Assembly (NCBI GenBank): GCA_964406405.1
Contig: CAYORN010000002.1
Location: 64,161-128,160, forward strand
From: an uncultured Alphaproteobacteria bacterium
GTDB taxonomy: Bacteria > Electryoneota > RPQS01
Reading direction: 5' to 3'
Length of the DNA stretch: 64,000 bases
Positions 4,823 through 64,000 of this stretch are shown piece after piece. The translations under genes were made by a program, and so were the position numbers. Position 1 is the first letter of the stretch. Each line of letters begins with the position of its first letter. Under the pieces are notes generated by a model. That model saw only the letters and a program-made list of their open reading frames with translations. It was not told where the DNA came from and ran no database searches.

Positions 4823-4883
4823 GATGTGCCTCCCAATACTTGGTTGTTGCCTCGCCGGAGTCGTTCCGGCAAGCGGCACACTT

Positions 4884-4970: not shown

Positions 4971-5009
4971 ACGTGGAATGTCTAAACTGCTTCCCGAATC
5001 AGCCTCCTG

Positions 5010-6620: not shown

Positions 6621-7093
6621 GGCACGATCTGCCCGTACCGCAGACAGGCATAGGCGACGCAGTTGCCGTTACAGTGGTCGCAATTCGGCTCGTCGTGGCA
6701 TTTCACCAGACAAACATACAGACGATACGAATGACCAGACACAAGGTTCACAGAGCACGTGTTGTTGCAATCGCCGGTGTCGCAGCCATTATTGTGGCAA
6801 CTGCCACCTTGTATCAGTTGCCCGTTCTCATAGACATAGGCACAAACTTCACAACCGCCGCAATCCGCGCCGTCCGGACACTTAACCCAAACATCAAAAG
6901 CATAGGTCGCGGTGCAGGATGCGGTGAACGCTTGAGCACTACACCCCGTGAGATCATTGTTGCACTCTATGCTCGAACAGCCGGTATCTTGTCCGCTGAT
7001 GAAATCGGAACAATCAGGACTGTCCCCGCCTCCTTGCGCCCACACTCCGCCTGTGATTACAAGAATTACTGCCACCAAGAATAACGCCTTCAT
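6608..7093 (-). CDS. small Cys-rich secreted protein (about 21 Cys), second type, unknown function
   Basis: signal peptide MKALFLVAVILVITGGVWAQ; 13-nt overlap with downstream beta-helix gene; same operon layout as 4316..4822. Confidence 0.65.
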   Translation of the reverse strand: MKALFLVAVILVITGGVWAQGGGDSPDCSDFISGQDTGCSSIECNNDLTGCSAQAFTASCTATYAFDVWVKCPDGADCGGCEVCAYVYENGQLIQGGSCHNNGCDTGDCNNTCSVNLVSGHSYRLYVCLVKCHDEPNCDHCNGNCVAYACLRYGQIVPCGQ

Positions 7094-7154
7094 GTTCCTT
7101 CACCTTACAAATTAGCTTGCCTGCCAGCGGCTCTATGTACGCAAGCCTGCATCC

Positions 7155-7242
7155 AAAGTAAGCAAAAAAAAACGGCTTGTCAAGCCGGTCAGTTTAAAGA
7201 GCCACGCATCTACAATCCAATAATCTATCAGCTTAGATATTG
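7155..7242 (-). promoter_or_regulatory. conserved upstream module copy 2 with sigma70-like promoter (TTGACA-17nt-TACTTT)
   Basis: identical 80-nt repeat to 4891..4970; -35 TTGACA at about 7178-7183. Confidence 0.5.
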
Positions 7243-7279
7243 GCACTGAATATCCAACCTGCCGCCTCGTCACCGTGAA

Positions 7280-37627: not shown

Positions 37628-40600
37628 TCGGAACCTTCGCGCAAAACGCGCAACGCGTCGGTTTGCGGCAGCTCGTAATCCCACTTGTGCGTGAAGCGTC
37701 CGGTGCCGCACGCCGCTTTCGCCGCGCAGAACTGGCAGACATCATTGGGCGTGGGGAAGAACTGGCCATGACCGACGAGGCCGGACACCTCCTCTATAAG
37801 CCGGGTGATGCTGGCGCGGTTCTGCTCCCAGGACTCGCGCGAGATTTCTATCGTCTGCGCTTCCTCCGTGCCGAGGAAATAGTACGCAAACGCGCCCACA
37901 TCGAGACCGAGCGCGGCGGCCGCGAGACGGGCGACGTGCGGCTCCAGTCCTGCCGCCGTGTCGTGCTGTTTAGCGCGATTCTCGAATTTTGCTGTGGTGT
38001 AATCCACCAGCCGCACCGCGCCATCCACGCCGATGTCCACGCGATCAATCCTGCCATGCAGCCGCAGCGTGTAACCGTTGCCGATTGGCAAGGTAACCGG
38101 CTCACGGCGAGACAGCTCGGAATCGCCCTCGTCTAAGCCATAGGTCACGTTAAAGTGCGCCGGACGAAAGGAGGAGGCTGCATTCACTTCGCACGAGAAA
38201 AACGCTTGCAACCGTTGTTTGATCCGCTCCTTTTCAATGTCCCAGAGGAGCGGCAGCCCGGGCACAAACTTGCGCTCAAACTCGGCGAAGCTCTCGTCCG
38301 CCGTGGAGGCCAAGCGCGGCCAGGCGTCGGCCGTTAAGGGCCAGCGGTTCGCCCGGGTTTCGGCGCGATAAAAGTGCTCCAAAATGTCGTGGATCAGCAT
38401 GCCGCGCGCGCGCGGTTCGAGCGGCTGAAGCCAATGCGGTTCGGCGGTGGGTTCCAGTTCGAGCAAGTGCATCACAAAATATTGAAACGGGCAGTCGAGG
38501 TAGCGTTGGATGCGACGCGGCGAGAGTGACGGGATCCATACCTTCAGACGCTCGCGCAAGCTTTGCGATTCGATGCTGCCGTCGAAAGGCGTGAACTCGC
38601 GCGCGCGATACCGCATGTGTTCCGCGTGCACGCCACGCTGGAATGCGGGATCCGCGCAGAAGAGATAGGCGACGTTGTCCGCGCTTTTCGTATGCAGAGC
38701 CATGCCGAGGCGGGCGAGGTCATATTGAAACGGCGTAACGGCCTGATCGGGGCGCTTTCCTTGCAGGCGATTGAGCGCCACGCGCCGCGCTTGCGGACTG
38801 GTACGGACAAAGGACTCCAACGACTCATAGTCGGCGGCATTCCCCGTTGCCGCCTCGAGCGCGCGCAGCAGAAATGCCGAGGCCAGCCACTCGCGGCCTT
38901 CCACCGGATCGAGGCGCGAGTAAGTGAGCACGACGCGGCGGCGCGCGGAGTTCACCGCGGTACGAAAGAGAAAACGCTCGCGATGGCGCAGCCGCGAGCG
39001 CAGCGGAATGGCAATGTCCGGGTGGTGCAGAGCACGCTGCAATTGCAGGCGCTCGTCGTCGAGCAGCAGCGGGTCTTGCGCGGTGGGACGCGGGAACTCT
39101 TTCTCCACCACGCCGCAGAGAATCACATCATCGAACACGACGCCAAACGCATCGGAGATTCTCGCAATGGTCGGCTCATGGACCTCGAACTTGCCTTCGC
39201 GGTCGAGCGGCTGCGACAGCAACGATTCAATGAAAGAAGAAAACTCGGCGGCATCCGGCTTTAGTCCCAGAGCATCGAGCAATGCCGCGTGCGTGAGTTG
39301 CTCGCGGATCAACTCCGCCTCGCCGTTACTCTCCACGAACTCGACATAGAGTGCGGCGGTGCGCTCGCCGATCTCCCGCCATGTTTTCGCCTTGCGGACG
39401 GCCGTGATTCCGGCAAACAACCGCTCGATGTACTGCTGGAAAACATCCAGCGACGCCAACTGGCGTTGCAGCGGAGCGGCAGGATCATCCATCTCCCGTT
39501 CGCGGCGCGCGAGTTCTTCCTCAAGCTGATGACATAAGCGGGATAGGTTCTGCCGCCACGGCGTCTCGCCGGCGATGATCTGCGCCTTGAGCGTGAAGTG
39601 ATTCCACTCCGCGGCAGGGACTTCGGGCAGTTCCGGAGGGAAATAGGCTGGGCGGCGGAGCGGCGACGAGAGCAGGAATTCCATCACGTCCGTACGACGG
39701 AACACGCCGTCGAAGAGCCTTACCAGCCAGCGCAGCGCGCGGCCCGAGGGCGTGTCGCCCAGCCTGCGGCACTCATGGATGTAACTCGTGATGCCGGCGC
39801 GCGACCACTCCTCACGCACGAGCGGGAGATAACTTGCGCTCTCGCGCATCAGGACGCCAATTGTTTCTCCCCTCCGTTCACGGGGGGGACTAAGGGGGGG
39901 CGAATCTGGTCCAATGCCGAACGACTTCGGATGCGATGCCGACCCGTACACCACCTCCCTCAGTATTTCCTCCACTTCACTGTCCCGGCCCGCCGCCGAA
40001 ATCACCCGAAAACTCTCATCTCCCCCTACTTCAGTAGGGGGATTAAGGGGGTCATCTTCAAGTGTCTCTTCAAACACTCCCAGTTGCACCCGCGCGAGCG
40101 CGTTGTCCTGCCCGGCGCGCTCGTCCGGCTCCAGCAGCTCGGCTTCGAAACCCTGTTCGAGATACCATTGGTAGAGCGGTTCGCTCCAGACATAGGCATC
40201 GGACGCACGAAAGGGCAAATATGCGATTGTTTCACATCCCGCCATCGCCCGCAGGATCAACTGCCGCTTCATGGCACTCAGATCATCCAGGCCATAAACG
40301 ACCAGACCCGCTTTCACGTTGCCTGCGGCTTGCCCTGCTAACTCGATCAGCATCGCGTGATCGGCGAGCTTGTGCCTTCGCATCAGTCCGTCCAACGCAC
40401 GCCAGATCGCGGCTATCTCTTTTAGTTTTTGGCGCGTGAGATCGCTGACCTGCGGACGATCGGACGCCGGCAAGATGTCTTCGGCAGTGAGCCCGACGGC
40501 TTTGAGTTCGTGAATCGTTGTCCACGCGGCGCGCTGGAAGCCCTTGCGAGGGGCCATGCGATGGAAATAGCGCAGTGAACACATTTCGACTGCGCGCTTC

Positions 40601-40905
40601 ATCAGCGGGTCCCGTTCGACATCGGAGATCATCCGCCAGCCCCGCTCGACCAGAAGCGGTGACGCGAGGTCATGCGCGTAATCTGTGAGCGTGCAGAAAC
40701 GAAGATTGGCATGACTCACGCCGGCGCGCGCCAATTCCCGTCGCAACGACAGCCCCGCCAGCACGCCGGGGACGAGCACAACCAATGGCGCCAGCGGATC
40801 GCGTTGGCGCCATTCGCGCAGGTCGGCGATGAATTGCGCCTGCAATTCGGGGAAATCCCCGGCAAAGAGGCGGCGGCTTGGGGAGGATGGGTCAGGCAGG
40901 GTCAC
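37624..40905 (-). CDS. addB: helicase-nuclease complex subunit B (AddB/RexB-like) with two in-frame poly-C element insertions
   Basis: C-terminal PD-(D/E)xK nuclease with Fe-S cysteines GRIDRVDIG...LVDYTTAKF...CQFCAAKAAC; immediately upstream of and overlapping addA. Confidence 0.8.
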   Translation of the reverse strand: MTLPDPSSPSRRLFAGDFPELQAQFIADLREWRQRDPLAPLVVLVPGVLAGLSLRRELARAGVSHANLRFCTLTDYAHDLASPLLVERGWRMISDVERDPLMKRAVEMCSLRYFHRMAPRKGFQRAAWTTIHELKAVGLTAEDILPASDRPQVSDLTRQKLKEIAAIWRALDGLMRRHKLADHAMLIELAGQAAGNVKAGLVVYGLDDLSAMKRQLILRAMAGCETIAYLPFRASDAYVWSEPLYQWYLEQGFEAELLEPDERAGQDNALARVQLGVFEETLEDDPLNPPTEVGGDESFRVISAAGRDSEVEEILREVVYGSASHPKSFGIGPDSPPLSPPRERRGETIGVLMRESASYLPLVREEWSRAGITSYIHECRRLGDTPSGRALRWLVRLFDGVFRRTDVMEFLLSSPLRRPAYFPPELPEVPAAEWNHFTLKAQIIAGETPWRQNLSRLCHQLEEELARREREMDDPAAPLQRQLASLDVFQQYIERLFAGITAVRKAKTWREIGERTAALYVEFVESNGEAELIREQLTHAALLDALGLKPDAAEFSSFIESLLSQPLDREGKFEVHEPTIARISDAFGVVFDDVILCGVVEKEFPRPTAQDPLLLDDERLQLQRALHHPDIAIPLRSRLRHRERFLFRTAVNSARRRVVLTYSRLDPVEGREWLASAFLLRALEAATGNAADYESLESFVRTSPQARRVALNRLQGKRPDQAVTPFQYDLARLGMALHTKSADNVAYLFCADPAFQRGVHAEHMRYRAREFTPFDGSIESQSLRERLKVWIPSLSPRRIQRYLDCPFQYFVMHLLELEPTAEPHWLQPLEPRARGMLIHDILEHFYRAETRANRWPLTADAWPRLASTADESFAEFERKFVPGLPLLWDIEKERIKQRLQAFFSCEVNAASSFRPAHFNVTYGLDEGDSELSRREPVTLPIGNGYTLRLHGRIDRVDIGVDGAVRLVDYTTAKFENRAKQHDTAAGLEPHVARLAAAALGLDVGAFAYYFLGTEEAQTIEISRESWEQNRASITRLIEEVSGLVGHGQFFPTPNDVCQFCAAKAACGTGRFTHKWDYELPQTDALRVLREGSE
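39869..39902. repeat. poly-C hairpin element P (reverse orientation), in-frame in addB
   Basis: revcomp cgcccccccttagtcccccccgtgaacggagggg translated as DSPPLSPPRERRGE. Confidence 0.7.
40022..40051. repeat. poly-C hairpin element P variant, in-frame in addB
   Basis: revcomp ccccttaatccccctactgaagtaggggg translated as DDPLNPPTEVGGDE. Confidence 0.65.
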
Positions 40906-52390: not shown

Positions 52391-54064
52391 TCAGGTTGTC
52401 CTCAAATACCCTTCTTTCCACAAGCCCCACGCGCCGACGATGGAAATGGCGCACCAGATGGCGGCGGGGATGGGGTTCAAGAGCAGAAAATAGCCGAGGC
52501 CGATCGTCAATCCAATCACGAAAGCGAGACCGTAGAACCAGCCGATGAGCGGCTTGCTGACGGAAGCGGCCTGCGGCACGATTTGTCCGTTCGCTCGGCC
52601 CCATTGGCGCACCGGCTCCCAGCGGCCAATCGGTTTCGTGCGCTGATAGAATTCCATCAGGTTTTTTAGCGGCGCGGGCTTGGTCAAGAATGTCACGGTG
52701 ATCCAGACGGCAGCGCTGCCAAAGGTGATAAACGCGAGCTTGGCGCCGAAGGGAAGGTCGGGAAAGACATAGGGAATGCCGAGCGTAATCACCGATGACG
52801 CAATCATGGCGCTGATTTCGCTCCACGCGTTGATCCGCCACCAGAACCAGCGCAGAATGTACACCGGGCCGGTGCCGGAACCAAAAGCAATGATAAACTT
52901 GAACGCGTCGGTGACAGACTCCGTGAACCACGCGGCCAGCCCCGCGCAGATGAGCACGACAAACGTGGCCACCATGCTCGCGCGGATGTAATGGCGCTCG
53001 CTTTTGTGCTTGACGAAGACGCTGCGGTAGAAATCGTGAACGAGATAGCTCGCGCCCCAGTTCAATTGCGTCGAGATCGTGCTCATGAACGCGGCCAAGA
53101 GCGAAGCTACCATCAATCCCTTCAAGCCGAACGGCAGAATCTCCATCATCAGCCGCGGGTAAGCCATTTCGGGATCGTCAATCGTGGGATAGATGACCAT
53201 GGACACGAGCGCGACGAGGACCCACGGCCACGTGCGAAACGCGAGGTTCGTCAGGCTGTACCAGAGCGTAGCGAGAAGCGCGTGCTGCTCGTTTTTGCAG
53301 GAGTTCTGCTTCTGAATCACCTTACCGCCGCCGTCGGAATTCACGTTCGCCCACCAGGTCATTGAGACATAGACCATGAAGCCGATGAACGCCGGCGTCC
53401 AGAAGTCCGCCGAGAAAATCGAACCCGCGCCGGGGGAGGGAGTCATCGCCACGACGTCCGGCTTCGTAATCACCGCCGCGAGGTTGTCCTTGAGCGCTTG
53501 CAGCCCGCCGACATGGTTCACGGCGTAAACGGCGAAGATGATCGCACCGCCCTGCATGATCACGTACTGCACGAGATCGGTGAGCGCCACGCCCCATTGC
53601 CCGGCGAGCAGCGTGTACATGAACGCGAGGCCGGTGAAGATGAGGATGGCCGCCGGTTTGTCGAGGCCGACGGAGACGTTCATGATCTTGTACATGGCGA
53701 GAATCACCCAGCCCATCGCGATCACGTTGATCGGCAGCGCGAGCCAGAGCGCGCGGAACGTGCGCAGGCCCGTGGATTCCGGCCCGTCGCCGTAGCGCAA
53801 TTGCGTGAGTTCTACGTCCGTGAGCACTTTCGCGCGTCGCCACAGCGGCGCGAGAAAGAAGGTGGCGAAGAGCGAGCCGATCCCGAAGCACCACCATTGC
53901 CAGTTCTCGTAGATCCCCGCCGTGCGCACGAGTTTGGTGACGTAAAGCGGAGTGTCGCAGGAGAAAGACGTGGCGACCATCGTGGTGCCGGCGATCCACC
54001 ACGGCAAAGCCCGCCCCGCAAGAAAATATTCTTCCGTGGAGCGGTGTGCGCGCTTGGTCATCAC
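52391..54064 (-). CDS. sodium:solute symporter (SSS family); true N-terminal TM1 probably encoded upstream without a canonical start
   Basis: EEYFLAGRALPWWIAGTTMVATSFS; about 13 TM; upstream in-frame codons after TAA encode TQAFLISNLSSLDWAIIIAYNVISLIVGL (classical SSS TM1) with no ATG/GTG/TTG. Confidence 0.8.
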   Translation of the reverse strand: MMTKRAHRSTEEYFLAGRALPWWIAGTTMVATSFSCDTPLYVTKLVRTAGIYENWQWWCFGIGSLFATFFLAPLWRRAKVLTDVELTQLRYGDGPESTGLRTFRALWLALPINVIAMGWVILAMYKIMNVSVGLDKPAAILIFTGLAFMYTLLAGQWGVALTDLVQYVIMQGGAIIFAVYAVNHVGGLQALKDNLAAVITKPDVVAMTPSPGAGSIFSADFWTPAFIGFMVYVSMTWWANVNSDGGGKVIQKQNSCKNEQHALLATLWYSLTNLAFRTWPWVLVALVSMVIYPTIDDPEMAYPRLMMEILPFGLKGLMVASLLAAFMSTISTQLNWGASYLVHDFYRSVFVKHKSERHYIRASMVATFVVLICAGLAAWFTESVTDAFKFIIAFGSGTGPVYILRWFWWRINAWSEISAMIASSVITLGIPYVFPDLPFGAKLAFITFGSAAVWITVTFLTKPAPLKNLMEFYQRTKPIGRWEPVRQWGRANGQIVPQAASVSKPLIGWFYGLAFVIGLTIGLGYFLLLNPIPAAIWCAISIVGAWGLWKEGYLRTT

Positions 54065-54167
54065 CAGCCCGACGATCAGGCTGATGACGTTGTAGGCGAT
54101 GATGATCGCCCAGTCGAGGGAGGAGAGGTTAGAAATGAGAAATGCCTGTGTTTATCTATGAACTGAA

Positions 54168-54767
54168 TCACTTCGGCGGATCAAGCGGCTTCCAGACGAT
54201 TTTGACTGGTTTTGACAGCAAACCCGATGTGGCTTTAACCAGTTCGGCGTGGAAGAGTTTGAGTTCTTGGCATTGTTTATCCCAGAATTCCCTCATAATA
54301 GCACCGCCATGCAGTTTGATTGTTGCATGCAGGTAATTCCCCAGGTGATCAAAGATATACTTCGCTCTATCCTTCGGCAACACTGTATACCGCATACCCA
54401 TCCAGCTTGTTGGAGCTTCGTGTGGCGAAGGCGAAGAGCCTATTGCCCATTGTTGTGGCTGCATTGAATCTGGATCAGTCTTTAACATGCGCTCGATTAA
54501 CTTCGCAGGGCGTGTGTTTTCGCTCTTTGGCTTTTGTTTCTTGCCGGTGATTGCCTCGCTCCGCGTAATGAGGAATGATTCCAGAGCAAGCCGCATTTCG
54601 AGAGCAGCATAGATCAAAAAGACTGCGTCGAGCCTTTCTGCCTCCCATCTCACAATGTGGTCTGCCGCACGGTCGAGGCAGCTTCGCGAATCTAGCTTTG
54701 TCTTTCTGACAAAAGGTGTGTCGTCCATAAGCGCGTGGTTGTTTTTCGAACTTGAATCTGCAAGCAC
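54168..54767 (-). CDS. hypothetical protein, low-GC orphan
   Basis: 199-aa non-repetitive ORF in a visibly AT-richer stretch (about 54150-55050); no recognisable motif. Confidence 0.35.
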   Translation of the reverse strand: MLADSSSKNNHALMDDTPFVRKTKLDSRSCLDRAADHIVRWEAERLDAVFLIYAALEMRLALESFLITRSEAITGKKQKPKSENTRPAKLIERMLKTDPDSMQPQQWAIGSSPSPHEAPTSWMGMRYTVLPKDRAKYIFDHLGNYLHATIKLHGGAIMREFWDKQCQELKLFHAELVKATSGLLSKPVKIVWKPLDPPK

Positions 54768-55106
54768 AGTGACTTTGCTTGTGCTAGTCCCTCACGCCCC
54801 ATTTGGCGAGGAGGTAGTTGATGGGAAGGGCGGAAGAAAACTTGAAAAAGAGGCCCGAGAGGTTCTGGACGCCCACCGAGGACGGTGGTGTCCAGAATGA
54901 CAAAATGTTGAATTGCGGACCCGCAGATTCCGCACGGCGAATGAACGATAAAGATAACCTTTTCTTCCACATGGTCAAACCGGACATGGGAGGGGGTTTT
55001 CTTGCCTTTCTGCGGAAAAACTCGTACTTTTGAAATTGGTGAAAAGCCGCACGTAATTGTTTCTCAAGCGAAACAATAACAATAACCTACAAAGATCGAG
55101 CGACTC

Positions 55107-56207
55107 ATGCACGACAAGCTGTTTATTCCCGGCCCGATTGAAGTCCGGCCGGAACTCCTCCAGGAGATTGCGCGCCCGCAAGTGGGGCATCGTACCCAAG
55201 CCTACCGCGATGTTCATCAGGCCGCGGTGGAGATGACGAAAAAGATCCTCTATACCGAGCAGGAAGTGCTGCTCTTTACCAGCTCCGCGACCGGCGTAAT
55301 GGAGGGCAGTGTCCGAAATCTGGTGCAGAAGAAAGTACTGCACGGCGTGAACGGCGCGTTCTCGCAACGCTGGTTCAATATCTCGTCGAAGTATAACGGC
55401 ATTCCCGCCGACAAGCTCGAAGTGCCGTGGGGACAGGCGATCAAGCCGGACATGATTGACGCGAAACTGAAGACCGGCGAATACGACGCATTCTGTTTGG
55501 TCTTCAACGAGACCTCGACCGGCGTGCGTGCACCGGTGGAAGAAATTGCGCAGGTCATGCGCAAATATCCCGACGTGATGTTTTTGGTGGACGCCGTGTC
55601 CGCGATGACGGGGGACAAGATCGAGTGCGACAAGCTCGGGCTTGATGTTTGCTTGGCCGGGACTCAAAAGTGCTGGGGTCTGCCCGCCGGGCTTTGTGTG
55701 ACCATGGTGTCCAATAAGGCGCTGGCGAAGGCGGCCACGACCAAGAATCCGGGGTACTACGTGAACTTCGTGGACGCGAAAAAGTACAACGACAAGCACG
55801 AAGTGCCGCATACGCCGGCGGTGCCGCTGATCTTCGGCTTGCGCGCGCAGGCGGATTACATCCTGAACAAGGAAGGGCTCGAAAATCGCTGGGCCCGGCA
55901 TAAGGAGATGCAGAAGATTGTACACGCGTGGGCGCTGGACAACGGCTTCTCGCTGTTCCCGGAGAAAGGCTACGAATCGGTAACGCTCTCGTGCATCAAC
56001 AACACGAAAGGCATGGAGATTTCCAAGCTGAACAAGGAACTCTCGAAGCGGCATCACGCGATCATCTCGAACGGCTACGGCGACATCAAGGAGAAGACCT
56101 TCCGCATCGCGCACATGGCGGATTGGCAGGTCGCGGACATCAAGCAGCTCTTAGGATGGCTGGACGAGATCATTCCGGTCGCGATGCCGCAACCGGTGGA
56201 AGTATGA
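55107..56207 (+). CDS. class V PLP-dependent aminotransferase (serine-pyruvate/alanine-glyoxylate or phosphoserine aminotransferase type)
   Basis: 366 aa; N-terminal KLFIPGPIEVRPELL; overall class V aminotransferase profile. Confidence 0.8.
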   Translation: MHDKLFIPGPIEVRPELLQEIARPQVGHRTQAYRDVHQAAVEMTKKILYTEQEVLLFTSSATGVMEGSVRNLVQKKVLHGVNGAFSQRWFNISSKYNGIPADKLEVPWGQAIKPDMIDAKLKTGEYDAFCLVFNETSTGVRAPVEEIAQVMRKYPDVMFLVDAVSAMTGDKIECDKLGLDVCLAGTQKCWGLPAGLCVTMVSNKALAKAATTKNPGYYVNFVDAKKYNDKHEVPHTPAVPLIFGLRAQADYILNKEGLENRWARHKEMQKIVHAWALDNGFSLFPEKGYESVTLSCINNTKGMEISKLNKELSKRHHAIISNGYGDIKEKTFRIAHMADWQVADIKQLLGWLDEIIPVAMPQPVEV

Positions 56208-56211
56208 TTCA

Positions 56212-56235
56212 AGGATGAAGGCGGAAGGACGAAGT
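56212..56235. repeat. GGATGAA heptad remnant + hairpin
   Basis: aaggatgaaggcggaaggacgaagttccctccgcctt. Confidence 0.5.
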
Positions 56236-56290
56236 TCCCTCCGCCTTTATCTTTACTTGGCAAAGAACAAGCAATCTGGAGACGAAGAAC

Positions 56291-56470
56291 ATGAAGTGCG
56301 AAGGTTGGCAATGCGGGTCGGGGGGAATCTACGGACTGGCGTTCATTGGCGCCGCCGTGTATTACATTCAGCACGCCGCGACGTTTTGGGAGGGGCTGCT
56401 GGGAATCGTGAAAGCGCTGTTTTGGCCGGCGATGCTGATCTACAAGGCGCTGGAGTTGCTCAAGATGTAA
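56291..56470 (+). CDS. small membrane protein (59 aa), below the ORF-track cutoff
   Basis: ATG 56291 with GGAG upstream; MKCEGWQCGSGGIYGLAFIGAAVYYIQHAATFWEGLLGIVKALFWPAMLIYKALELLKM; high GC3; followed by hairpin CCCCCAAAAC-GAG-TTTTGGGGG (56486-56507). Confidence 0.45.
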   Translation: MKCEGWQCGSGGIYGLAFIGAAVYYIQHAATFWEGLLGIVKALFWPAMLIYKALELLKM

Positions 56471-56565
56471 ACCCCCTTTGTGTTTCCCCCAAAACGAGTT
56501 TTGGGGGAAAGAGCATTATGCTCTCGAACAAATATTCATGAAAGAACCTTAAACAGGAGGCCGCG

Positions 56566-58020
56566 ATGAAGTACTCACTTCTGATTCTGCTGGCGTGTGC
56601 GGTGGCGGGGTTTGGGCAGCCGGTGGAAGGGCCGTTTATCGTTATTGAAAGCGACTCGGCCATTCACCACATTCACGTCGCTGCGCGAAATGATTCGGTG
56701 GCGGATGTGTTTTATCAGGTGGGGAATGCGGCGTATCACGTTGCTTTTGCGCTCGATATTGGGGTGGTATATGCAGGGCCGGATGCTCTTCCTATGCGGA
56801 GCGCAAGCGACGCTCGAATGCTCTGCGATGTAACATCAACCACAGTCGGCTGGGCAGCTCTGACCTACGACTCATCTTCCGGATGGAATCGAACGATGGC
56901 CTACTCTGGATCTGACAACCCGGATTCCGGCATGATGCTTGACTCGGGAATTGTGATGAGCAGCGGGGAATGGGTTTCGATCAGTCAAAATTACGCGCTT
57001 CGGCTTTCATCGAGAACGTCAGGCGGATTCTTCGCGGCATGGCTCAATGAATGGGCCTACGATCGTCCGTGGTTTTGGGGTGAAGCCGGGGCTGGACCGG
57101 TTGTCCATGAGTTCTCACCTGGCGGTGTGCATCGGTGCGCGCAAAACGGTTATGAGGGCCCTTTTCAAAACGAAAGCCAGTCTGTAGATGTTTTCGAATG
57201 GAGTCCGGATACGTCTCTTGTCCTCATAAGTGAACCCGACGGCATCACAATAAGCGCTGCTCCGTGGGGCGAATTTGGTTGCGGCTATGTTAGCTCCTTA
57301 AATTGGCTTTGGCGAGGGGTGCGCAATGTCGGCAGCTTGTTTACGAGCAGCGGTACAATCTTTGTTGTCTCTCGCAGCGTGGGATCTTCCCAAGCCTGCA
57401 TTCTGCGTATTGACGATTTCTCATCATACACTCAATTGGATACTCTGGACAGCGAGCCGATCGTCGCTGCTTCTAACCTCTCCTTCGGCTTCGCGTGGCT
57501 CTCTCAGCCTTCGAGCGGATTACTCCTGAATCGTGCCGACACGACCGGAACGCTCGTTCATCCGGCAGGTGTGGTGTGCTGGCCGGATGAAGGAATGGCT
57601 ATAACCGGAAGCAATATTGCCATTTCGGATAACGGCAAGATTGTGATCGTTTGGACGACGCAAGCCATCGCGAATCCGGAATCCACGCAGCTTTGGATTG
57701 AAGCCGTGGATTGGCTCACTCCGCTTTCGGTTAGTCCACAACCGGAGGTTGTGGGCAGTCCGTCGGATTTTGCACTTTCCGCCTATCCGAACCCCTTCAA
57801 CAGCGAGCTGCAGATTGCGTATGACCTGCCGCGCGCGCAGACGATTGAGTTGGCGGTGTACAACGTGCTCGGGCAAAAGGTGGCGGAATTGGTGAACGGA
57901 GTGCAGACCGTGGGAAATCATCAGGCGATGTGGTCGGCCCATGAAGGGAGCGGGATCTATTTCGTGACGCTGAGGACGGGAGAGACTACTAAGACACAGA
58001 AGGTGCTGCTGGCGCGATAG
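56566..58020 (+). CDS. T9SS-sorted secreted protein, tandem family member 1
   Basis: CAGGAGG RBS; signal MKYSLLILLACAVAGFGQPVEGP; C-terminal YPNPFNSELQIAYDLPRAQTIELAVYNVLGQKVAEL...GSGIYFVTLRTGETTKTQKVLLAR. Confidence 0.7.
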   Translation: MKYSLLILLACAVAGFGQPVEGPFIVIESDSAIHHIHVAARNDSVADVFYQVGNAAYHVAFALDIGVVYAGPDALPMRSASDARMLCDVTSTTVGWAALTYDSSSGWNRTMAYSGSDNPDSGMMLDSGIVMSSGEWVSISQNYALRLSSRTSGGFFAAWLNEWAYDRPWFWGEAGAGPVVHEFSPGGVHRCAQNGYEGPFQNESQSVDVFEWSPDTSLVLISEPDGITISAAPWGEFGCGYVSSLNWLWRGVRNVGSLFTSSGTIFVVSRSVGSSQACILRIDDFSSYTQLDTLDSEPIVAASNLSFGFAWLSQPSSGLLLNRADTTGTLVHPAGVVCWPDEGMAITGSNIAISDNGKIVIVWTTQAIANPESTQLWIEAVDWLTPLSVSPQPEVVGSPSDFALSAYPNPFNSELQIAYDLPRAQTIELAVYNVLGQKVAELVNGVQTVGNHQAMWSAHEGSGIYFVTLRTGETTKTQKVLLAR

Positions 58021-58100
58021 AATATTTTCTCGATAAGGACGGCCATAATAAATCATGGCCCTACGAATATTCGTTGAAGAACATCGAACAGGAGGCCGCG

Positions 58101-59561
58101 ATGAAGTACTCACTCTTGATTTTGCTGGCGTGTGCGGTGGCGGGGTTTGGGCAGCCGGTGGAAGGGCCATACGTTGTAACAGATAATCCCTATTGGGCTG
58201 ATCCGCTGTCTCTTGCGCTGCGCAACGACTCGACAGCGGACATTTTCTACGGCGAGCTGTTCGCATATCGTCAGCCATTCTCCTTTGCGACAGATGATAT
58301 TGAGGGCGATGCGCAGCTACTGTCTTTCGAGAACTCTCCTCACAACGTACGTATTCTCCCTGTGGATGCAGCCAGCGCAAATGGATGGTGGTACGTGCTG
58401 GGTTACGGAGACGACGGGACAAATAACCTGACCATGCTGGCGTACGGTGATGCAAATCCGGAGAACACGCAGTTCGCCTTTATTGACGACGGCGACAACG
58501 TACTCGAGCAACCGTTTGGTGAGACGAGCGTTAGCCGCAGTCGTGCGATCTGTCCACGCGTCGGCGGCGGCTGCATTATCAGTTGGATGGATGACTGGAT
58601 GTATGACAACGGCTGGTGGCAAGAAGGCGGCAGCGACTTTCGCGCGATCGTAATGGATCCATCAGAACCCGAGCAAACTTATGAACGAAACCTGGGCTTT
58701 TCCTGGTTTGAATCAGCCCAGGCGTTATCACTCACGCGAGACACTTTAAGAATGGTGGGAACCGTGTACGACGGACTCTGCGTCCAAGACATTACAGAGG
58801 AATGGACGATAGGCTGCTTCGATGAAAACCCGTACTCTTCCTGCTCACTATTTGTCGTCGAATACTTGCGAACATTTACGGGCCGCGAATTCGCGCTGGG
58901 GATTGAGAGTAACTTCTGGCAATTTGCCTACGCTCCGCGATTGGTAGAACTTGATTCCGTCACGCAAACTTGCCAAGAAGTCATGGACATTGTGCACAAT
59001 CCAATCGCCTGGGCATCACATCCCTTGTGGGGAATGGCATGGCTTTCCAAACCGGGAGCTGGACTGCTGCTGACCAGAGTTGATACTGCAGGAAGTGTTT
59101 TTTCGCAGGATGGTACTCTTTATTGGCCCGAGGCCAACTACCGTGTCTTGAATGCTGACCTCGCCATATCACCGACAGGCTGGTTGGTGGCCAGTTGGTG
59201 GGAAATTAACGAGGATGTGTGGGATGAGTCGCGAATCATGATCGCGCGGGTGTTCTGGGATACACCCCTCTTCACGAACCCCGAGCCCGAACGCACAGCC
59301 GTGGGGCGCTACGAATTGCAGACGTATCCCAATCCCTTCAACAGCGAATTGCAGATTGAGTATGATTTGCCACGCGCAGGAGACGTGGAACTTGGGGTGT
59401 TCAACGTCCTCGGGCAGCAGGTGGCGGAGTTGAGTCACGGAGTCATGCCGGCGGGGCGGCATCAGGCGATGTGGTCGGCCCATGAAGGGAGCGGGATCTA
59501 TTTCGTGACGCTGAGGACGGGAGAGACTACTAAGACACAGAAGGTGCTGCTGGCGCGATAG
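58101..59561 (+). CDS. T9SS-sorted secreted protein, tandem family member 2
   Basis: identical leader and signal peptide; C-terminal 37 codons identical at nucleotide level to member 1. Confidence 0.7.
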   Translation: MKYSLLILLACAVAGFGQPVEGPYVVTDNPYWADPLSLALRNDSTADIFYGELFAYRQPFSFATDDIEGDAQLLSFENSPHNVRILPVDAASANGWWYVLGYGDDGTNNLTMLAYGDANPENTQFAFIDDGDNVLEQPFGETSVSRSRAICPRVGGGCIISWMDDWMYDNGWWQEGGSDFRAIVMDPSEPEQTYERNLGFSWFESAQALSLTRDTLRMVGTVYDGLCVQDITEEWTIGCFDENPYSSCSLFVVEYLRTFTGREFALGIESNFWQFAYAPRLVELDSVTQTCQEVMDIVHNPIAWASHPLWGMAWLSKPGAGLLLTRVDTAGSVFSQDGTLYWPEANYRVLNADLAISPTGWLVASWWEINEDVWDESRIMIARVFWDTPLFTNPEPERTAVGRYELQTYPNPFNSELQIEYDLPRAGDVELGVFNVLGQQVAELSHGVMPAGRHQAMWSAHEGSGIYFVTLRTGETTKTQKVLLAR

Positions 59562-59641
59562 AATATTTTCTCGATAAGGACGGCCATAATAAATCATGGC
59601 CCTACGAATATTCGTTGAAGAACATCGAACAGGAGGCCGCG

Positions 59642-61120
59642 ATGAAGTACTCACTCTTGGTTTTGCTGGCGTGTGCGGTGGCGGGGTTGGGGCAGCCGGT
59701 GGAAGGGCCGTGGGTGGTGATGGAGGTAGACACGTCTTCCGAATACGCGTATGCGCCGCTCGTTGTTGATATCGATGTGCAGACAGCACGCATATTCTTC
59801 TCTCTTGATTCAGCCAGCCATCATACAGTGAACACCGTTCTTTATGACATGGAAGAGCATCAGTTGATGGCCGACCCTGTAATTGTGCGATCTGACTCTC
59901 TGCCGGCACATCTCAAGAACGCCATCGCCGATGGAGTTGATTCTTGGGTTGTGGTTATGGTACGGCCGGTGTCTGAAACGGCAACAAGGACGCTGTCGAT
60001 AATTGGGCATCAGGACGGGCACTTCGAATACACAATCGGCAGTTCGTATCCCGGCAACCAGTATTTCGCCGGGCAGTGTGTTTCCAAAGTGAATTTAGCG
60101 CCCCGCATCGGCGGGGGATGGCTCATGACCTATGTGATACAGCGACTACCGCCACCGTATTTCGAAAATGAGAGTCAGGTCTATGTCGTTGGTGTTTCCT
60201 CTGATTCGATTGAGTATCGCCAGCCACTGATTCCCTACGAGAACCAGCTTTTCGGCCCATATCAGGCAGCAGCGGTGTCATTTTCGCATGATACCAGTCT
60301 TGTGTTGACGCAGACGCTTTGGGGTCAGGGATGGCCGGATTTCGGTTCTGTCTTGCTACGGGCGGTGGCCGGTGGCGATTCCAATATACTCGACACGGTG
60401 TGTACTTTCTCCTGCGGTCTCAGTGCAACGGATTTGCGGGCAAGCGGTCAAGGGGAATTCATCACGTACTCCGCCGAGTACGCTTCCCACAATTCCTTGT
60501 TTCATGTTGACGAGACGGGATCATGCACGGTTTTGGGATCGTTGGCCTTCACGTATGAGCCAGAAAGGCTTGCCTTTGAAGCGGGCTTTGGTTACGCCGC
60601 ACTTTGGCGCAATTCAAGCTGGATCAAAGTGGCGCGAATAGGCGAAGACGGAACATCTACCGAGCCGGGTGTTTTTTACTGGCGCAGTGACGGCTATCGG
60701 ATCGGTGAAGCCGATTTGACAATCACTCCAGATGGCCGAATTCACGTCCTTTGGACGGAAGCCGCGAACGGCTACGCGAATGCGTCACGTCTAATGACGG
60801 GTTGGATCAACTGGGATACTCCGCTTTCCGCAAACCCTTCTGACTTCATCCCTTATCCTTCAGGCTTCAGCCTTTCCTGTTATCCGAATCCGTTCAACCC
60901 TACGACGACGATCTCGTTTGAACTGCCGCGGGGCGGGCAGGTGACGCTGGACGTTTACGACCTTATGGGGCGATTGGTGCAGACATTGGTGAATGAATCC
61001 ATGACCGCTGGCTCACACCAGATTGCGTTTGACGGCAGTCATCTCGCCAGCGGGATCTACTGGAGCCGACTGAATGCAGGGGGCAAGCAGGTGGTGCGGA
61101 AGATGGTCTTGCTTCGTTGA
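59642..61120 (+). CDS. T9SS-sorted secreted protein, tandem family member 3
   Basis: same leader/signal (MKYSLLVLLACAVAGLGQPVEGP); divergent body; C-terminal YPNPFNPTTTISFELPRGGQVTLDVYDLMGRLVQ...GIYWSRLNAGGKQVVRKMVLLR. Confidence 0.7.
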   Translation: MKYSLLVLLACAVAGLGQPVEGPWVVMEVDTSSEYAYAPLVVDIDVQTARIFFSLDSASHHTVNTVLYDMEEHQLMADPVIVRSDSLPAHLKNAIADGVDSWVVVMVRPVSETATRTLSIIGHQDGHFEYTIGSSYPGNQYFAGQCVSKVNLAPRIGGGWLMTYVIQRLPPPYFENESQVYVVGVSSDSIEYRQPLIPYENQLFGPYQAAAVSFSHDTSLVLTQTLWGQGWPDFGSVLLRAVAGGDSNILDTVCTFSCGLSATDLRASGQGEFITYSAEYASHNSLFHVDETGSCTVLGSLAFTYEPERLAFEAGFGYAALWRNSSWIKVARIGEDGTSTEPGVFYWRSDGYRIGEADLTITPDGRIHVLWTEAANGYANASRLMTGWINWDTPLSANPSDFIPYPSGFSLSCYPNPFNPTTTISFELPRGGQVTLDVYDLMGRLVQTLVNESMTAGSHQIAFDGSHLASGIYWSRLNAGGKQVVRKMVLLR

Positions 61121-63273
61121 TTCCTAAACTGAGATTGCAGAACTTGAAATACACTCCAAGAAACAGCGTCCTGGCGATCGCGCTGCTCTGCATTGGGCTG
61201 GCGCGTGCGCTCTTCGCGGCTGATCTGAATTTGGATACCGTCAAGTACGTCCTGCCGGAACAGACCGTGATCGGCACGCGCTCGCAGACGAATTGGCTGC
61301 ACAATCCGTCCGCAGTGACCGCGCTCTCGGCGACCGACCAGCCCACGCGGCGGCTGATCGGCGTGGCCGAGCATCTGCTGCTCGTGCCGGGACTGGTGGC
61401 GCTGCCGCAATTCGGCACGGATGACATGCGGCTCTCGATGCGCGGCATGGGCATGCGTTCGAACTCCGGCGAGCGCAGCGTGCGCGTGCTGTACGACGGC
61501 ATTCCCGAATCGGAACCTGACGGGCAAACGCGCCTCGAAGGCATCGAGACCGGAAACATCGAGCAGGTCGAAGTGCAGCGCGGCGCGGGTTCGTCGCTCT
61601 ATGGCAATGCGGCGGGCGGGGTGATCAATCTGCGCACCATGGAAGGCTTGGCCGAAACGGGCATGAAGCTGGACGCGCAAGGCGGAGGCTTCGGCTTTTC
61701 CAAAGTCAAACTCACGGCGGGAACGCGCGCGGCGAAAGAAGATTCTTCCATTACGTTTTCGTTGGATCTGAAAAGGCTGAAATTCGCGGCCGATCTGGGC
61801 ACCAGCAGCGAAGGCGGTTTGGCGTCGCTCTCGCAAATCAAGTCCGATGGCTACCGCGTGCATTCGAAGTATGAGAGCCAACTCGTGAACGGGTCATGGA
61901 CCGTGAAGGCCAACGCGTTCTCGAATTTGCGCGTGCTGGCCTACTTCACGAACGCGCGCGCGGAGCTGCCGGGAACGCTGACCCGTGCGCAGTATGAATC
62001 CAATCCCGATCAAGCCGATCCGCAGTACATTGACCGGGATGTCCGCCGCTACACGCGCAAGGGCCGCTTCGGTTTCGCGTATCAACGGGTGTTCGGTGAG
62101 CGCGTGCTGCTTTCCTTTACCCCTTACGCGGCATTGAAGAAACTCGATCGCGCGCGGGAGACGGGAAAATATCAAACGATTACGCGCTACGTGTTAGGGG
62201 GAATGCTCCAGGGGCAATGGAACACTTTGATCGCCGAGCGAAAGTTCCAGCTCGTCGCCGGCCTGGATGAACAGTTCATGGATGGGCCGGTGACGCAATA
62301 CGTGGCGGATCATGGCCGCCGCACCGAGGAATTGGTCAGCCAGGAACAGGAGCGGCAGTGGGAACAGGGCATGTATGCGGAAGGGAACCTCACGCTCAGC
62401 GAACACTGGGAAGCCACGCTCGGCGGAAGGGTGGAGCGCGTCGAACTGACCGGCATGCCGCTGAATGAAGTGAGCACAGAGAAGAAGGAGGAAGCGGAAC
62501 CCGCATTCATTCCGCGCGCGGGGTTGCGCTATGCCTTCAATCCGGAAACCGTGCTCTTTGGCGCCGTGTACGGCGGCTACGAAACCGCAACGCTGATGGA
62601 GCGCGAGAAGTTCGATGAGGCGTTTGGGACGGAATTGAAGCCGCAGAAATCGCTGACGGCGGAATTGGGTCTTCGCGCGGAGCGGAAACTCTCGTGGAGC
62701 GATGCGCAATTCGAAGCGACGTTGTACCGGATGACTGTGGACGATTACATCATGCCTGCGCCGGGCCAAGGCGAAAAACTGTGGGTCAACGCCGGGCAGA
62801 CGGTGCATCAGGGAATTGAAGTCTCCGCGAAACTCATCCGGCAGGGCCTGGGTTACGTGGGGGTGGCGGGCAGCATCGGCGATTTCCATTTTGCCAAATA
62901 TGTCACTGACTCGACGAACTACAACGACAAGAAGTTGCCGGGCGTTTCGCCCAATCTGTTCAACGCGATCGTGCGCTGGACGCCGCGCGACTATTTCTAT
63001 GCGGAGCTGAGTTCGCGCTTTTCCGGATCGGCCTTTGTGAACACGGAGAACACGGATAAGGCCGACGGATTCATGGTGCTGAATGCGGCGATCGGCGGGC
63101 GCCTGCCGGTCAAGGCGCTGGCGGCGGCGTGGCACCTCGGCGTGCAGAACCTCGCCGATGAAAAGTACGTGTCCTACATTCAGGTGAACGATTCGCAGGA
63201 CCGCTTTTTTGGTCCCGGGCTGCCACAGACGGTGTTCGGCGGAATCTCCATCGGCACTGGAGGAGTGTTTTAA
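61117..63273 (+). CDS. TonB-dependent outer-membrane receptor
   Basis: TTG start overlapping previous stop (alt. TTG about 61144); signal peptide; plug-region DTVKYVLPEQTVIGTR; 22-strand-barrel size; C-terminal aromatic ...GGVF. Confidence 0.8.
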   Translation: MIPKLRLQNLKYTPRNSVLAIALLCIGLARALFAADLNLDTVKYVLPEQTVIGTRSQTNWLHNPSAVTALSATDQPTRRLIGVAEHLLLVPGLVALPQFGTDDMRLSMRGMGMRSNSGERSVRVLYDGIPESEPDGQTRLEGIETGNIEQVEVQRGAGSSLYGNAAGGVINLRTMEGLAETGMKLDAQGGGFGFSKVKLTAGTRAAKEDSSITFSLDLKRLKFAADLGTSSEGGLASLSQIKSDGYRVHSKYESQLVNGSWTVKANAFSNLRVLAYFTNARAELPGTLTRAQYESNPDQADPQYIDRDVRRYTRKGRFGFAYQRVFGERVLLSFTPYAALKKLDRARETGKYQTITRYVLGGMLQGQWNTLIAERKFQLVAGLDEQFMDGPVTQYVADHGRRTEELVSQEQERQWEQGMYAEGNLTLSEHWEATLGGRVERVELTGMPLNEVSTEKKEEAEPAFIPRAGLRYAFNPETVLFGAVYGGYETATLMEREKFDEAFGTELKPQKSLTAELGLRAERKLSWSDAQFEATLYRMTVDDYIMPAPGQGEKLWVNAGQTVHQGIEVSAKLIRQGLGYVGVAGSIGDFHFAKYVTDSTNYNDKKLPGVSPNLFNAIVRWTPRDYFYAELSSRFSGSAFVNTENTDKADGFMVLNAAIGGRLPVKALAAAWHLGVQNLADEKYVSYIQVNDSQDRFFGPGLPQTVFGGISIGTGGVF

Positions 63274-63372
63274 TGTCCAAGTCCCTCGTTTGAGATTCCG
63301 TCGGTGTTTCTTCCTCTTTCTGATTTCTATTTTCTAATTGTTTGATTCTGCATTCCGTTTCCGGAGGTTCGC

Positions 63373-64000
63373 ATGGATGACCTGCGGCTGAATCGCAAGG
63401 ATGGCGTATTTATCACGCTATGCTTGCTTGTGCTCGTGGCCGGCGTGCTGGTGAGTTTTCGCTATTTCAAGAAGGCCTTTCCCGAAGCGGCGATCGAGTT
63501 CCGCTACGACCGCGCGCAATCGGGGCGGCTCGCCGGACAATTTGCCGACAGCCTTGAGTGGGAGATTCCCAAAGGCTATCGGCACGCCAGCCGCTTCGGC
63601 TATGACGGCCTGGCAAAGACGTATCTGGAAAAAGAGCTGGGGGTGGAGGGGGCGCAGAAATTTCTGGGCAAGCCGGTTCGCCTCTGGTATTGGCAGCATC
63701 GCTGGTTCAAGCCGGCAACCAAGGAAGAGTATCGCGTTTTCGTGACGCCGGAAGGCGACGTCGTCCGGGTCGCGCATGACGTCGCAGAGGATGCGCCGGG
63801 AGCGGATCTAAGCGAATCCGGCGCGCGGGAGCTGGCCGAGCGTTTTCTGTTCGGCCCGATGAAATCGGATTCGGCCAAGCTCACGTTTATTGAATCGCAG
63901 CGCATCGGCCGTCCCAATCGCGCCGATTGGAGCTTCACGTGGCGCGCGACCGGCATCGAGCCGGTGAAAGGCGCGGAGTATCGCTACTCCGTAGATATTA
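63373..64000 (+). CDS. hypothetical membrane-anchored protein (partial; runs off the window)
   Basis: ATG 63373 after CCGGAGG RBS; one N-terminal TM (VFITLCLLVLVAGVLV); open to the end of the window. Confidence 0.45.
   Translation, partial: MDDLRLNRKDGVFITLCLLVLVAGVLVSFRYFKKAFPEAAIEFRYDRAQSGRLAGQFADSLEWEIPKGYRHASRFGYDGLAKTYLEKELGVEGAQKFLGKPVRLWYWQHRWFKPATKEEYRVFVTPEGDVVRVAHDVAEDAPGADLSESGARELAERFLFGPMKSDSAKLTFIESQRIGRPNRADWSFTWRATGIEPVKGAEYRYSVDI

Follow-up and report, generated by a model that had tools for sequence, protein, structure and literature searches.

At 56566-61120 of the window, the whole 64-kb stretch of DNA analysed here, three same-strand (+) ORFs follow one another in tandem (Table 1). 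Each encodes a signal peptide, a domain of ~380 aa and a type A T9SS C-terminal domain (CTD). The initial annotation described them as three tandem T9SS cargo genes, and the domain models bear this out: genes 1, 2 and 3 score 40.3, 34.5 and 47.0 bits with PF18962 (Pfam, cut-off 27) and 47.0, 39.5 and 39.5 bits with TIGR04183 (NCBIfam, cut-off 23), corresponding to E = 3.8e-10 and E = 1.8e-12 for gene 1, whose protein has an exact NCBI record (P0002). GGAGG precedes the ATG start of the array genes; for genes 2 and 3 the ORF finder runs the starts out to upstream TTGs, and the ATG starts were adopted.

Table 1. Features of the cargo-gene array and its flanks (window coordinates)
Feature	Position	Strand	Description
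Small ORF	56291..56470	+	59 aa, hydrophobic, conserved; between aminotransferase gene and gene 1; context, outside the repeat
Hairpin	56484..56509	+	11 bp, strong (UUUCCCCCAAAAC/GUUUUGGGGGAAA); upstream of gene 1 leader
Gene 1 leader	56528..56565	+	partial, diverged copy of the junction leader; ends in the shared GGAGGCCGCG ribosome-binding region
Gene 1	56566..58020	+	484 aa; signal peptide codons 1-17, QPVEGP, ~380-aa core, CTD aa 407-481 (nt 57784-58008)
Junction repeat copy 1	57919..58168	+	last 102 nt of gene 1, 80-nt spacer, first 68 nt of gene 2
Spacer 1	58021..58100	+	80 nt; weak hairpin, palindrome CGAATATTCG (58064-58073), GGAGG (58091-58095)
Gene 2	58101..59561	+	486 aa; signal peptide, 7-bladed beta-propeller, CTD aa 409-483 (nt 59325-59549)
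Junction repeat copy 2	59460..59709	+	last 102 nt of gene 2, spacer, first 68 nt of gene 3
Spacer 2	59562..59641	+	identical to spacer 1
Gene 3	59642..61120	+	492 aa; architecture as genes 1 and 2; CTD aa 414-489 (nt 60881-61108)
TonB-dependent receptor	61117..63273	+	Plug and TonB_dep_Rec_b-barrel domains; same gene call in L005

Downstream, the TonB-dependent receptor noted initially is indeed present, with both plug and barrel. Its TTG start overlaps the TGA stop of gene 3 (TTGA), which suggests translational coupling, and a receptor also follows the array in two relatives (L007 and L027). The array genes may be co-transcribed and functionally tied to the receptor. By analogy with L007 and L027, another family member would be expected beyond the 1131-aa gene that lies downstream of the receptor. 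Upstream, the 59-aa small ORF has no match in Pfam; it is a gene call in L031, corresponds to a 64-aa ORF in the sister-species locus L025, and lies within a flank alignment between the window and L025 that passes through it at 80% nt identity. The strong hairpin that follows it probably marks where the transcript of the upstream unit ends: the region 56480-56565 folds with -27 kcal/mol (z = -3.4), and one of 200 shuffled sequences folded equally well.

The signal peptide, recognized by inspection as a Sec type, reads MKYSLLILLACAVAGFG and is followed by QPVEGP. A lipoprotein reading of 'LLAC' was rejected, as the Cys is not conserved and relatives have F at this position. An AlphaFold2 model places a helix at residues 2-15, a low-confidence linker after it, and seven strands at residues 405-484 (pLDDT ~80-92), as in the beta-sandwich of a T9SS CTD. 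QPVEGP and the motif YPNPFN are kept across the family, and the array proteins terminate in KVLLAR or KMVLLR. Judging from the sorting domain, a T9SS presumably secretes them or attaches them to the surface after export through Sec. No T9SS component (PorK/L/M/N, Sov/SprA, PorU/V) was recognized among the 29 window ORFs scanned; eight proteins in the 64 kb carry a CTD, so a T9SS in this genome is likely.

A PDB profile search with the family found no solved relative by sequence. The likeness to YncE of E. coli and to CylK is one of fold only (a seven-bladed beta-propeller), with sequence identity of at most 12%, the level usual for any 7-bladed propeller, so no function can be transferred. These secreted 7-bladed propellers are a small, undescribed family (93 clusters among 1.84 billion representatives).

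Genes 1 and 2, and genes 2 and 3, are joined by the same sequence. The initial annotation reported a perfect direct repeat of about 230 nt; the repeat is real, with a perfect run of 200 nt (57919-58118 = 59460-59659, offset 1541) that extends to 58168 and 59709 as 250 nt of 99.2% identity with two mismatches. Both mismatches, at 58119 and 58148 (59660 and 59689 in copy 2), are non-synonymous (I7V and F16L). Several of the earlier measurements shift slightly. The identical gene ends, given as ~110 nt, are 102 nt long; the second copy, placed at 59458-59690, starts at 59460, an error of 1-2 nt; and the shared starts of genes 2 and 3, described as ~60 identical nt, are perfect over the first 18 nt only, the two mismatches falling within the first 68 nt. 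The intergenic leader was described correctly: it is exactly 80 nt long and occurs twice with 0 mismatches, against a chance expectation of 0 (100 shuffles). The repeat family further includes the 5´ end of gene 1 (56553-56633) and a portion of the gene 1 leader, at ~90-97%; in repeat family D2/D3 this leader matches the other two copies at 85% over 121 nt. The family does not extend to the 3´ end of gene 3.

Within the spacer, the GGAGG sits 5 nt before the ATG of gene 2. The GGCCAT...ATGGCC element noted earlier as a hairpin exists as sequence, a GGCCAT-N8-ATGGCC inverted repeat at 58041-58060 (arms 58041-58046 and 58055-58060) and 59582-59601. As a structure it is weak and thermodynamically unremarkable, the fold of the whole spacer being equal to that of shuffled sequence (z = -0.02). 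A scan for sigma-70 promoters and intrinsic terminators found none at the junction, and a lone promoter-like site at 59338 is below chance expectation; Rfam has no match anywhere in the window. In several relatives, a hairpin plus CTAC follows the stop codons of family genes, with stems that differ; RNAalifold on six of these post-stop hairpins, which align poorly, gave a covariation term of +0.17. A metagenome scan with the leader plus gene start (GGAGGCCGCGATGAAGTACTCAC) returned one contig, from the same organism as L026.

Segment identity matrices along the three genes reveal homogenized ends around divergent cores, as had been proposed. The cores are ~40% identical in nucleotides and 21-25% or 24-29% identical in protein, depending on the alignment, and the boundaries are sharp against these diverged flanks. 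The signal peptides are 91-100% identical in amino acids. For the CTDs, genes 1 and 2 share 81%; the gene 3 CTD is ~40% identical to both and 29-41% identical to every family member compared, and is not homogenized. A second cargo pair in the window, at 2728-7262, displays the same mosaic. GC3 follows the same segmentation, with 55-59% in the cores, 72-84% in their own ends and 73-84% in housekeeping genes. Fast evolution and a foreign origin of the cores would explain this low GC3 equally well.

The identity of the ends reaches synonymous positions. Over the final 34 CTD codons, genes 1 and 2 use the same codon at 31 of 31 conserved degenerate residues, against a same-codon background of 33-34% in the cores (P ~3e-15), and signal-peptide codons match between array genes at 18/22, 19/20 and 17/20 positions. 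Together with the 80 of 80 identical non-coding nt, this is identity beyond protein-level constraint. It supports the concerted evolution suggested initially, given that the junction copies are 100% identical inside this genome and 80-87% identical to L025.

To locate the loci of relatives, we anchored the search on the aminotransferase, a conserved neighbour of the array. The region over which L025 and the window are collinear, at 80% nt identity, reaches from the aminotransferase into the signal peptide; compared with the window copies, L025 has 87% identity in the leader plus signal peptide and 80-81% in the CTD. Synonymous divergence is similar across these segments (CTD dS 0.76-0.90; aminotransferase dS 0.96). 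The first gene after the aminotransferase in L025 has a gene-3-type core. The nearest relatives of the gene 3 core are P0004, P0015 and P0013 (47, 42 and 36% aa), and the CTD of P0004 is of the gene-1/2 type (78-81%). In a sliding window, P0004 follows gene 3 up to about alignment codon 450 and then genes 1 and 2 (72-83%) in the CTD, so that the segments of this gene have incongruent histories, with the breakpoint at the start of the CTD. Between the cores of gene 3 and P0004, synonymous divergence is saturated (dS 3.8) and amounts to four times that of the species.

Homogenized ends recur in other lineages. In the array L001, identity is 24% in the cores but 95% in the signal peptides and 83% (nt) over CTD plus spacer, and L011 and L006 have 85-86% repeats at gene ends. 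Gene ends are not homogenized in L007, L008 and L009, which indicates that the process is episodic. The number of genes between aminotransferase and receptor is three here, two in L027 and one in L007. An apparent strain-level cassette swap in the second gene of L027 and L028 was rejected as a gene-calling and gap effect; the two loci are 99.9% identical.

We conclude that the locus has most probably undergone segment-specific concerted evolution by recombination between the junctions of tandem paralogs. Ancient paralogous propeller genes form this small tandem array, and their cores diverged long ago and are kept different. The junction module comprises the 3´ half of the CTD, the 80-nt spacer including the ribosome-binding site, and the codons for the signal peptide encoded next. 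In this model, homologous recombination of the RecA type, acting between the two junctions, would recently have overwritten the module. We infer this mechanism from the identity pattern; non-reciprocal gene conversion would be the likeliest route, and in a single genome the same picture would be expected from unequal crossing-over or from a circle of core plus junction that re-inserted. The conserved signal-peptide and sorting-domain sequences could provide the homology that seeds recombination and, over the longer term, could let lineages re-assort cores, sorting domains and copy number. The 'cassette-like variation' proposed initially is therefore apt only for long-term evolution, in which cores and ends have been re-assorted between lineages; as programmed switching it is not supported, with complete copies, no silent copies in the window and no recombinase among the 29 ORFs scanned.

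The alternatives were weighed against the same observations. The source genome is a metagenome-derived assembly, and the assembler could have invented or duplicated the junction, or misjoined the three genes. An exact repeat of 200 nt is longer than the k-mers commonly used, so core order rests on read pairs or long reads; the order gene 1-gene 2-gene 3 across the repeat, which comes from one assembly, is the sole linear path in which every core occurs a single time. As a second source we used the Logan k=31 contigs of SRR13723393, made by a different assembler. One contig end falls at 56617 and one contig start at 59630, in both cases exactly 30 nt from the nearest copy-specific base (for L005, which begins at 59630, this base is the first mismatch between genes 2 and 3, at 59660). 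These are precisely the places where a de Bruijn graph has to break if the sequence is truly multi-copy. Where compared, the contigs are exact: L005 is identical to the window over 4371 nt, and so is L031 over its last 300 nt. With junction copies that differ at two positions, unique cores on both sides and the same architecture in relatives from other samples, an artefact is extremely improbable, and the earlier worry that the repeats arose in assembly is largely answered. Even less credible is an account without recombination, in which extreme purifying selection on signal peptide, sorting domain and leader would explain the identity of the ends. The ends are functionally constrained, as the family-wide conservation of YPNPFN and QPVEGP attests, but the identity covers synonymous sites and the non-coding spacer, and the same segments have diverged from the sister species at the dS given above. 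Moreover, the gene 3 CTD is only ~40% identical and passes the same domain models, so function does not need this particular sequence.

Programmed antigenic or phase variation, in which donor cassettes would overwrite a single expressed copy (as known for pilE/pilS, vlsE and msp2), is suggested by variable middles between conserved repeats in genes for exported proteins, and by an adjoining surface receptor that is hypervariable too (52.7% aa identity to L027, where the aminotransferase has 93.7%). We nevertheless consider it very unlikely, since all three copies are full-length, each with its own ribosome-binding site, ATG, signal peptide and CTD, and the core differences are ancient, without patchwork segments. 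The additional silent cassettes that had been envisaged did not turn up: tblastn found no further whole or partial core copies in the 64 kb. The 29 window ORFs scanned include no recombinase, and searches for inverted repeats found none in 54000-64000 and none of at least 50 nt across the window. Among the features of programmed cassette systems, the window has the conserved flanking repeats, and lacks the arrangement of a single expression site with promoterless, truncated silent cassettes. A recent gain of the gene 2 core is unlikely but deserves more weight. Here a circle or incoming fragment carrying core and junction would have recombined into an older gene 1-gene 3 junction, the insertion duplicating that junction, and junction modules would act as portable homology arms for core exchange between strains. 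The identical junctions are exactly those that flank the gene 2 core, the core complement and copy number (1-3) vary among relatives, core dS is saturated beside flanks at species-level divergence, and core GC3 is atypically low. However, no donor sequence, circle or deletion variant was seen, and the near-identical strains L027 and L028 share the same cores. The 5´ end of gene 1 is also homogenized with genes 2 and 3 (~97%), and the L001 junctions have graded identities of 83-95%, both of which fit repeated conversion better than one insertion.

Other known systems were considered and rejected. An integron was discounted because no integrase was found among the neighbouring genes and the edges of the repeat fall within coding sequence, and by inspection the spacer GTTGAAG fails the attC core consensus GTTRRRY. 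The repeats are identical, not A-mutated as in a diversity-generating retroelement, and an invertible promoter was dismissed for want of inverted repeats in 54000-64000.

Recombination between junctions may have a wider role. Tentatively, the junction module could serve throughout the lineage as a 'secretion adaptor' and homology arm, making this an integrase-free cassette system within a hypervariable surface locus; we regard this as a possibility rather than an expectation. Ordinary homologous recombination would then let strains gain, lose and exchange propeller cores, and possibly the receptor. The saturated cores beside species-level flanks, the breakpoint at the CTD start, the low core GC3 and the copy numbers of 1-3 are observations that fit such a role.

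The homogenized tract runs from a sorting signal through the spacer into the export signal of the next gene, and the functional cores are anciently divergent, which makes the array a clean, quantifiable case of segment-specific concerted evolution in tandem genes. It is a familiar mode of surface-protein family evolution and does not reveal a new mechanism. Since junction repeats break short-read assemblies exactly at gene ends, such arrays are likely under-counted in metagenome-assembled genomes.

The closest parallels come from a few host-associated pathogens. In the Hop paralogs of H. pylori (babA/babB, sabA/sabB/hopQ, homA/homB), the N- and C-terminal segments are likewise highly similar or identical and the middles divergent. 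The family varies from strain to strain in copy number and locus occupancy (PMC3960876). Hop genes, however, occupy dispersed loci and encode autotransporter-like beta-barrels, whereas the window has tandem genes for T9SS cargo, in which the homogenized tract crosses an intergenic spacer into the next gene; and conversion in H. pylori demonstrably alters adhesin expression in a host. In T. forsythia, each KLIKK gene follows a potempin inhibitor lipoprotein gene (PMC9890683). The catalytic domains of the KLIKK proteins come from unrelated protease families, whereas the cores here are homologous propellers (21-25%); the proteins of the array lack the KLIKK C-terminal motif, only two of the three CTDs are homogenized, and no potempin gene precedes the cargo genes, the 80-nt spacers being without an ORF. 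The gingipains and HagA of P. gingivalis are T9SS cargo with combinatorial domain modularity and a conserved CTD, a modularity attributed to homologous recombination and allelic exchange (PMC5266723). There, the shared modules are internal adhesin domains in dispersed genes of a naturally competent pathogen, and there is no tandem junction repeat. The array described here widens the pattern of H. pylori Hop, T. forsythia KLIKK and P. gingivalis gingipains to environmental, uncultured T9SS-bearing bacteria.

Three genes for cargo of the type IX secretion system (T9SS) stand in tandem and are followed by a TonB-dependent receptor gene, an arrangement that the initial annotation had read correctly; a class-V aminotransferase gene precedes them. 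The C-terminal domain (CTD) of each protein passes the curated cut-offs of both PF18962 and TIGR04183, which describe the type A sorting domain of this system. In each gene the ATG lies 5 nt after GGAGG, and all three proteins start with MKYSLL(I/V)LLACAVAG(F/L)GQPVEGP. The cores of ~380 residues between signal peptide and CTD, seven-bladed beta-propellers, have no match among Pfam or NCBIfam models. When 1.84 billion representatives were scanned in full with these cores by HMMER, only 93 clusters were returned at E <=0.001; nearly all are 470-505 aa long and thus have the same architecture. The order sodium-solute symporter, aminotransferase, array is conserved around arrays in relatives.

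Features of the tandem cargo units and their flanks
Feature	Coordinates	Strand	Remark
Class-V aminotransferase gene	55107-56207		Upstream flank of array
Hydrophobic small ORF, 59 aa, MKCEGWQCG...ELLKM	56291-56470		Between aminotransferase gene and gene 1
Gene 1	56566-58020		Same strand as genes 2 and 3
Gene 2	58101-59561		Same strand as genes 1 and 3
Gene 3	59642-61120		Same strand as genes 1 and 2
TonB-dependent receptor gene	61117-63273		Downstream flank of array
Second tandem cargo unit	2728-7262	minus	Period ~2272 nt
Beta-helix T9SS cargo genes of second unit	2736-4340 and 5010-6620	minus
Small Cys-rich secreted proteins of second unit	4316-4894 and 6608-7093	minus
Upstream non-coding segments of second unit	4893-4990 and 7165-7262		98 nt

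Perfect direct repeats of ~230 nt had been proposed to span the gene ends, spacers and gene starts of the array. The span holds, but the exact run is 200 nt (57919-58118 = 59460-59659, offset 1541 nt), and, with two mismatches, the match reaches as far as 58168/59709; the first description was right in substance, with a coordinate slip of 1-2 nt. The tract takes in the closing 102 nt (34 codons) of genes 1 and 2, the whole 80-nt spacer (two occurrences with 0 mismatches; 0 expected in shuffled sequence), and the opening 68 nt of genes 2 and 3. In the first half of the CTD, just 5´ of the exact run, genes 1 and 2 share ~69% of their nucleotides. All three genes are 93-96% identical over their first 69 nt, and the leader of gene 1 resembles the spacer over ~38 nt. 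The gene 3 CTD lies outside the repeat and shares ~40% protein identity with the other two.

The gene middles are as divergent as had been claimed, with 21-25% protein identity between cores. Conserved core residues use the same codon in only 33-34% of cases, so synonymous sites are saturated, and the cores are ancient. In the identical tract, codon choice agrees at every conserved degenerate residue (31 of 31; P about 3e-15), and the two non-coding spacers do not differ at any position. A locus from a sister species (L025) provides the outside reference: from the aminotransferase into the first array gene's signal peptide it aligns collinearly with the window (80% nucleotide identity), and its aminotransferase is 92% identical in protein, with a dS of 0.96. 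Compared with the window copies, the L025 leader and signal peptide reach 87% identity and the CTD 80-81%, the latter with a dS of 0.76-0.90 that equals species divergence. Since the window junctions are identical and L025 reaches only 80-87%, the similarity of these segments is far greater inside the genome than across species, which is how concerted evolution is defined in operational terms (PMC6053082). The suggestion of concerted evolution is thus borne out at synonymous and spacer sites alike. Judging from these sequence comparisons, recombination, rather than selection or a recent duplication, most probably accounts for the identical junctions. Elsewhere in the window, two overlapping large ORFs on the minus strand (34391-40905) code for an AddA-like UvrD helicase that also has a PD-(D/E)XK nuclease domain, and for an AddB-like nuclease, a pair whose double-strand-break processing would feed RecA-dependent recombination.

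Cores and ends have separate histories. The protein of the L025 array gene has a gene-3-type core (47% aa identity) joined to a CTD of the gene-1/2 type (78-81%), and a sliding-window comparison places the switch at the CTD start, around the YPNPFN motif. Against gene 3 its core dS is saturated (3.8), four times species divergence, so the cores predate the species split, whereas the flanks do not. The gene-3-type core comes first after the aminotransferase in L025 and third in the window, and the number of copies between aminotransferase and receptor is three in the window, two in L027 and one in L007. GC3 is 55-59% in the cores (56635-57780, 58170-59320 and 59711-60880), 72-84% in the signal-peptide and CTD segments of the same genes, 73-84% in neighbouring housekeeping genes, and intermediate (61-77%) in other T9SS cargo genes of the window. 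The low core GC3 fits fast evolution or foreign origin equally as candidates. The least ordinary reading, in which strains swap cores by using the junction modules as homology arms, we consider unlikely. The cassette-like variation of the initial annotation is not supported in the sense of a programmed system, as the 64-kb window holds no silent truncated donors. An integron was also considered, and the array lacks its defining features.

Homogenised ends recur. A more distant array (L001) has signal peptide and leader segments that are 95% identical, CTD and spacer segments that are 83% identical, and cores at 24%; gene-end repeats of 85-86% occur in L011 and L006, and none were found in L007, L008 and L009. 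In the second tandem unit of the window, the beta-helix cargo pair is about 90% identical over the last 100 residues versus 43% overall, the small Cys-rich pair is 28% identical, and the non-coding segments are 93% identical, with a terminator-like hairpin and T-run on the minus strand. End homogenisation is therefore episodic and general to such arrays in the lineage; it is not a device peculiar to one locus. Nearby, a 471-aa ORF (1232-2647) contains near-tandem DNA repeats of 53-71 nt in five and three copies, 64-83% identical, which encode propeller blades of the SGDGGYI-AGYT type; the ORF has only a weak DUF5122 match. In a 2371-aa protein, P0054, 30 separate stretches match positions 259-351 of the core profile, its blade region, and the protein appears to be a giant repeat protein made of one propeller segment of the core family.

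Could the repeat be an assembly artefact? The exact proteins are recorded in NCBI from a contig of 968,353 bp. Run SRR13723393 also has a Logan assembly, from a different assembler and with k=31, in which one contig (L005) matches the window exactly over 4371 nt, and the last 300 nt of another (L031) were located and also match exactly. L031 ends at 56617, 30 nt past the last base that sets gene 1 apart from the other two signal-peptide copies, and L005 starts at 59630, with 30 nt to go before the first base at which genes 2 and 3 differ. Such break points are expected of true multi-copy sequence in the reads. Across the 200-nt exact repeat, the assembled order 1-2-3 is probably right, as no other linear path takes in each core just once. 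In L027, the spacer after the first array gene (5748-5921) includes a stretch of N with long G-runs and C-runs on its flanks; that assembly fails at a junction of the same type.

The spacer contains the inverted repeat GGCCAT-N8-ATGGCC (58041-58060) noted at the outset, though as a hairpin it is weak: the spacer is no more stably folded than shuffled sequence (z = -0.02). Scans of the spacer predicted no sigma-70 promoter or canonical terminator, and Rfam gave no match there. In relatives, stronger hairpins stand at this position, immediately behind the stop codon and ahead of a CTAC, and their stems differ in sequence (GGGCACAG/CTGTGCCC in L025 and L026, GGACACGG/CCGTGTCC in L012, GTCGGC/GCCGAC in L027). 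We suggest that the hairpin may be a transcript-end or RNA-stability element that is weak in the window genome. The three genes are probably co-transcribed and individually translated. The TTG start of the receptor overlaps the gene 3 stop (TTGA), possibly coupling the two. The receptor is hypervariable (52.7% aa identity to its L027 counterpart versus 93.7% for the adjacent aminotransferase), and its best NCBIfam match, PqqU, is far under the cut-off. The small ORF upstream of gene 1 is conserved, being called also in L025 and L031, has no Pfam match, and is followed by a strong 11-bp hairpin (56484-56509, z = -3.4).

The nearest species representatives (L007-L009; aminotransferase identity 87-93%) are TPA bins labelled 'uncultured Alphaproteobacteria bacterium', and T9SS-CTD cargo arrays are present in all three. 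Of the relatives with 75% aminotransferase identity, L010 is labelled candidate division KSB1 and two others simply 'bacterium'. A genome so rich in T9SS cargo makes the Alphaproteobacteria label doubtful, and for L007-L009 it looks wrong. Codon 18 of the array genes (56617-56619, 58152-58154 and 59693-59695) encodes a Gln right after the predicted signal-peptide cleavage site that is nearly invariant in the family, where the context reads G-x-G/A before the cut and QPxEGP after it. This resembles the 'Q-rule' (N-terminal pyroglutamate), reported for Bacteroidetes and not for the FCB group as a whole (PMC5837995); the host lineage is uncultured and may fall outside Bacteroidota.

The closest known cases are the Helicobacter pylori Hop paralogs, with conserved termini, 3´ segments in concerted evolution, and RecA-dependent conversion (PMC3960876), the Tannerella forsythia KLIKK proteases, clustered T9SS cargo with nearly identical CTDs (PMC4404884), and the modular rearrangements of Porphyromonas gingivalis gingipains and HagA (PMC5266723). 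Although the array belongs to none of these, having neither the KLIKK motif and potempin partner nor the Hop barrel, it works like them, and is a real, well-supported, and ordinary phenomenon.
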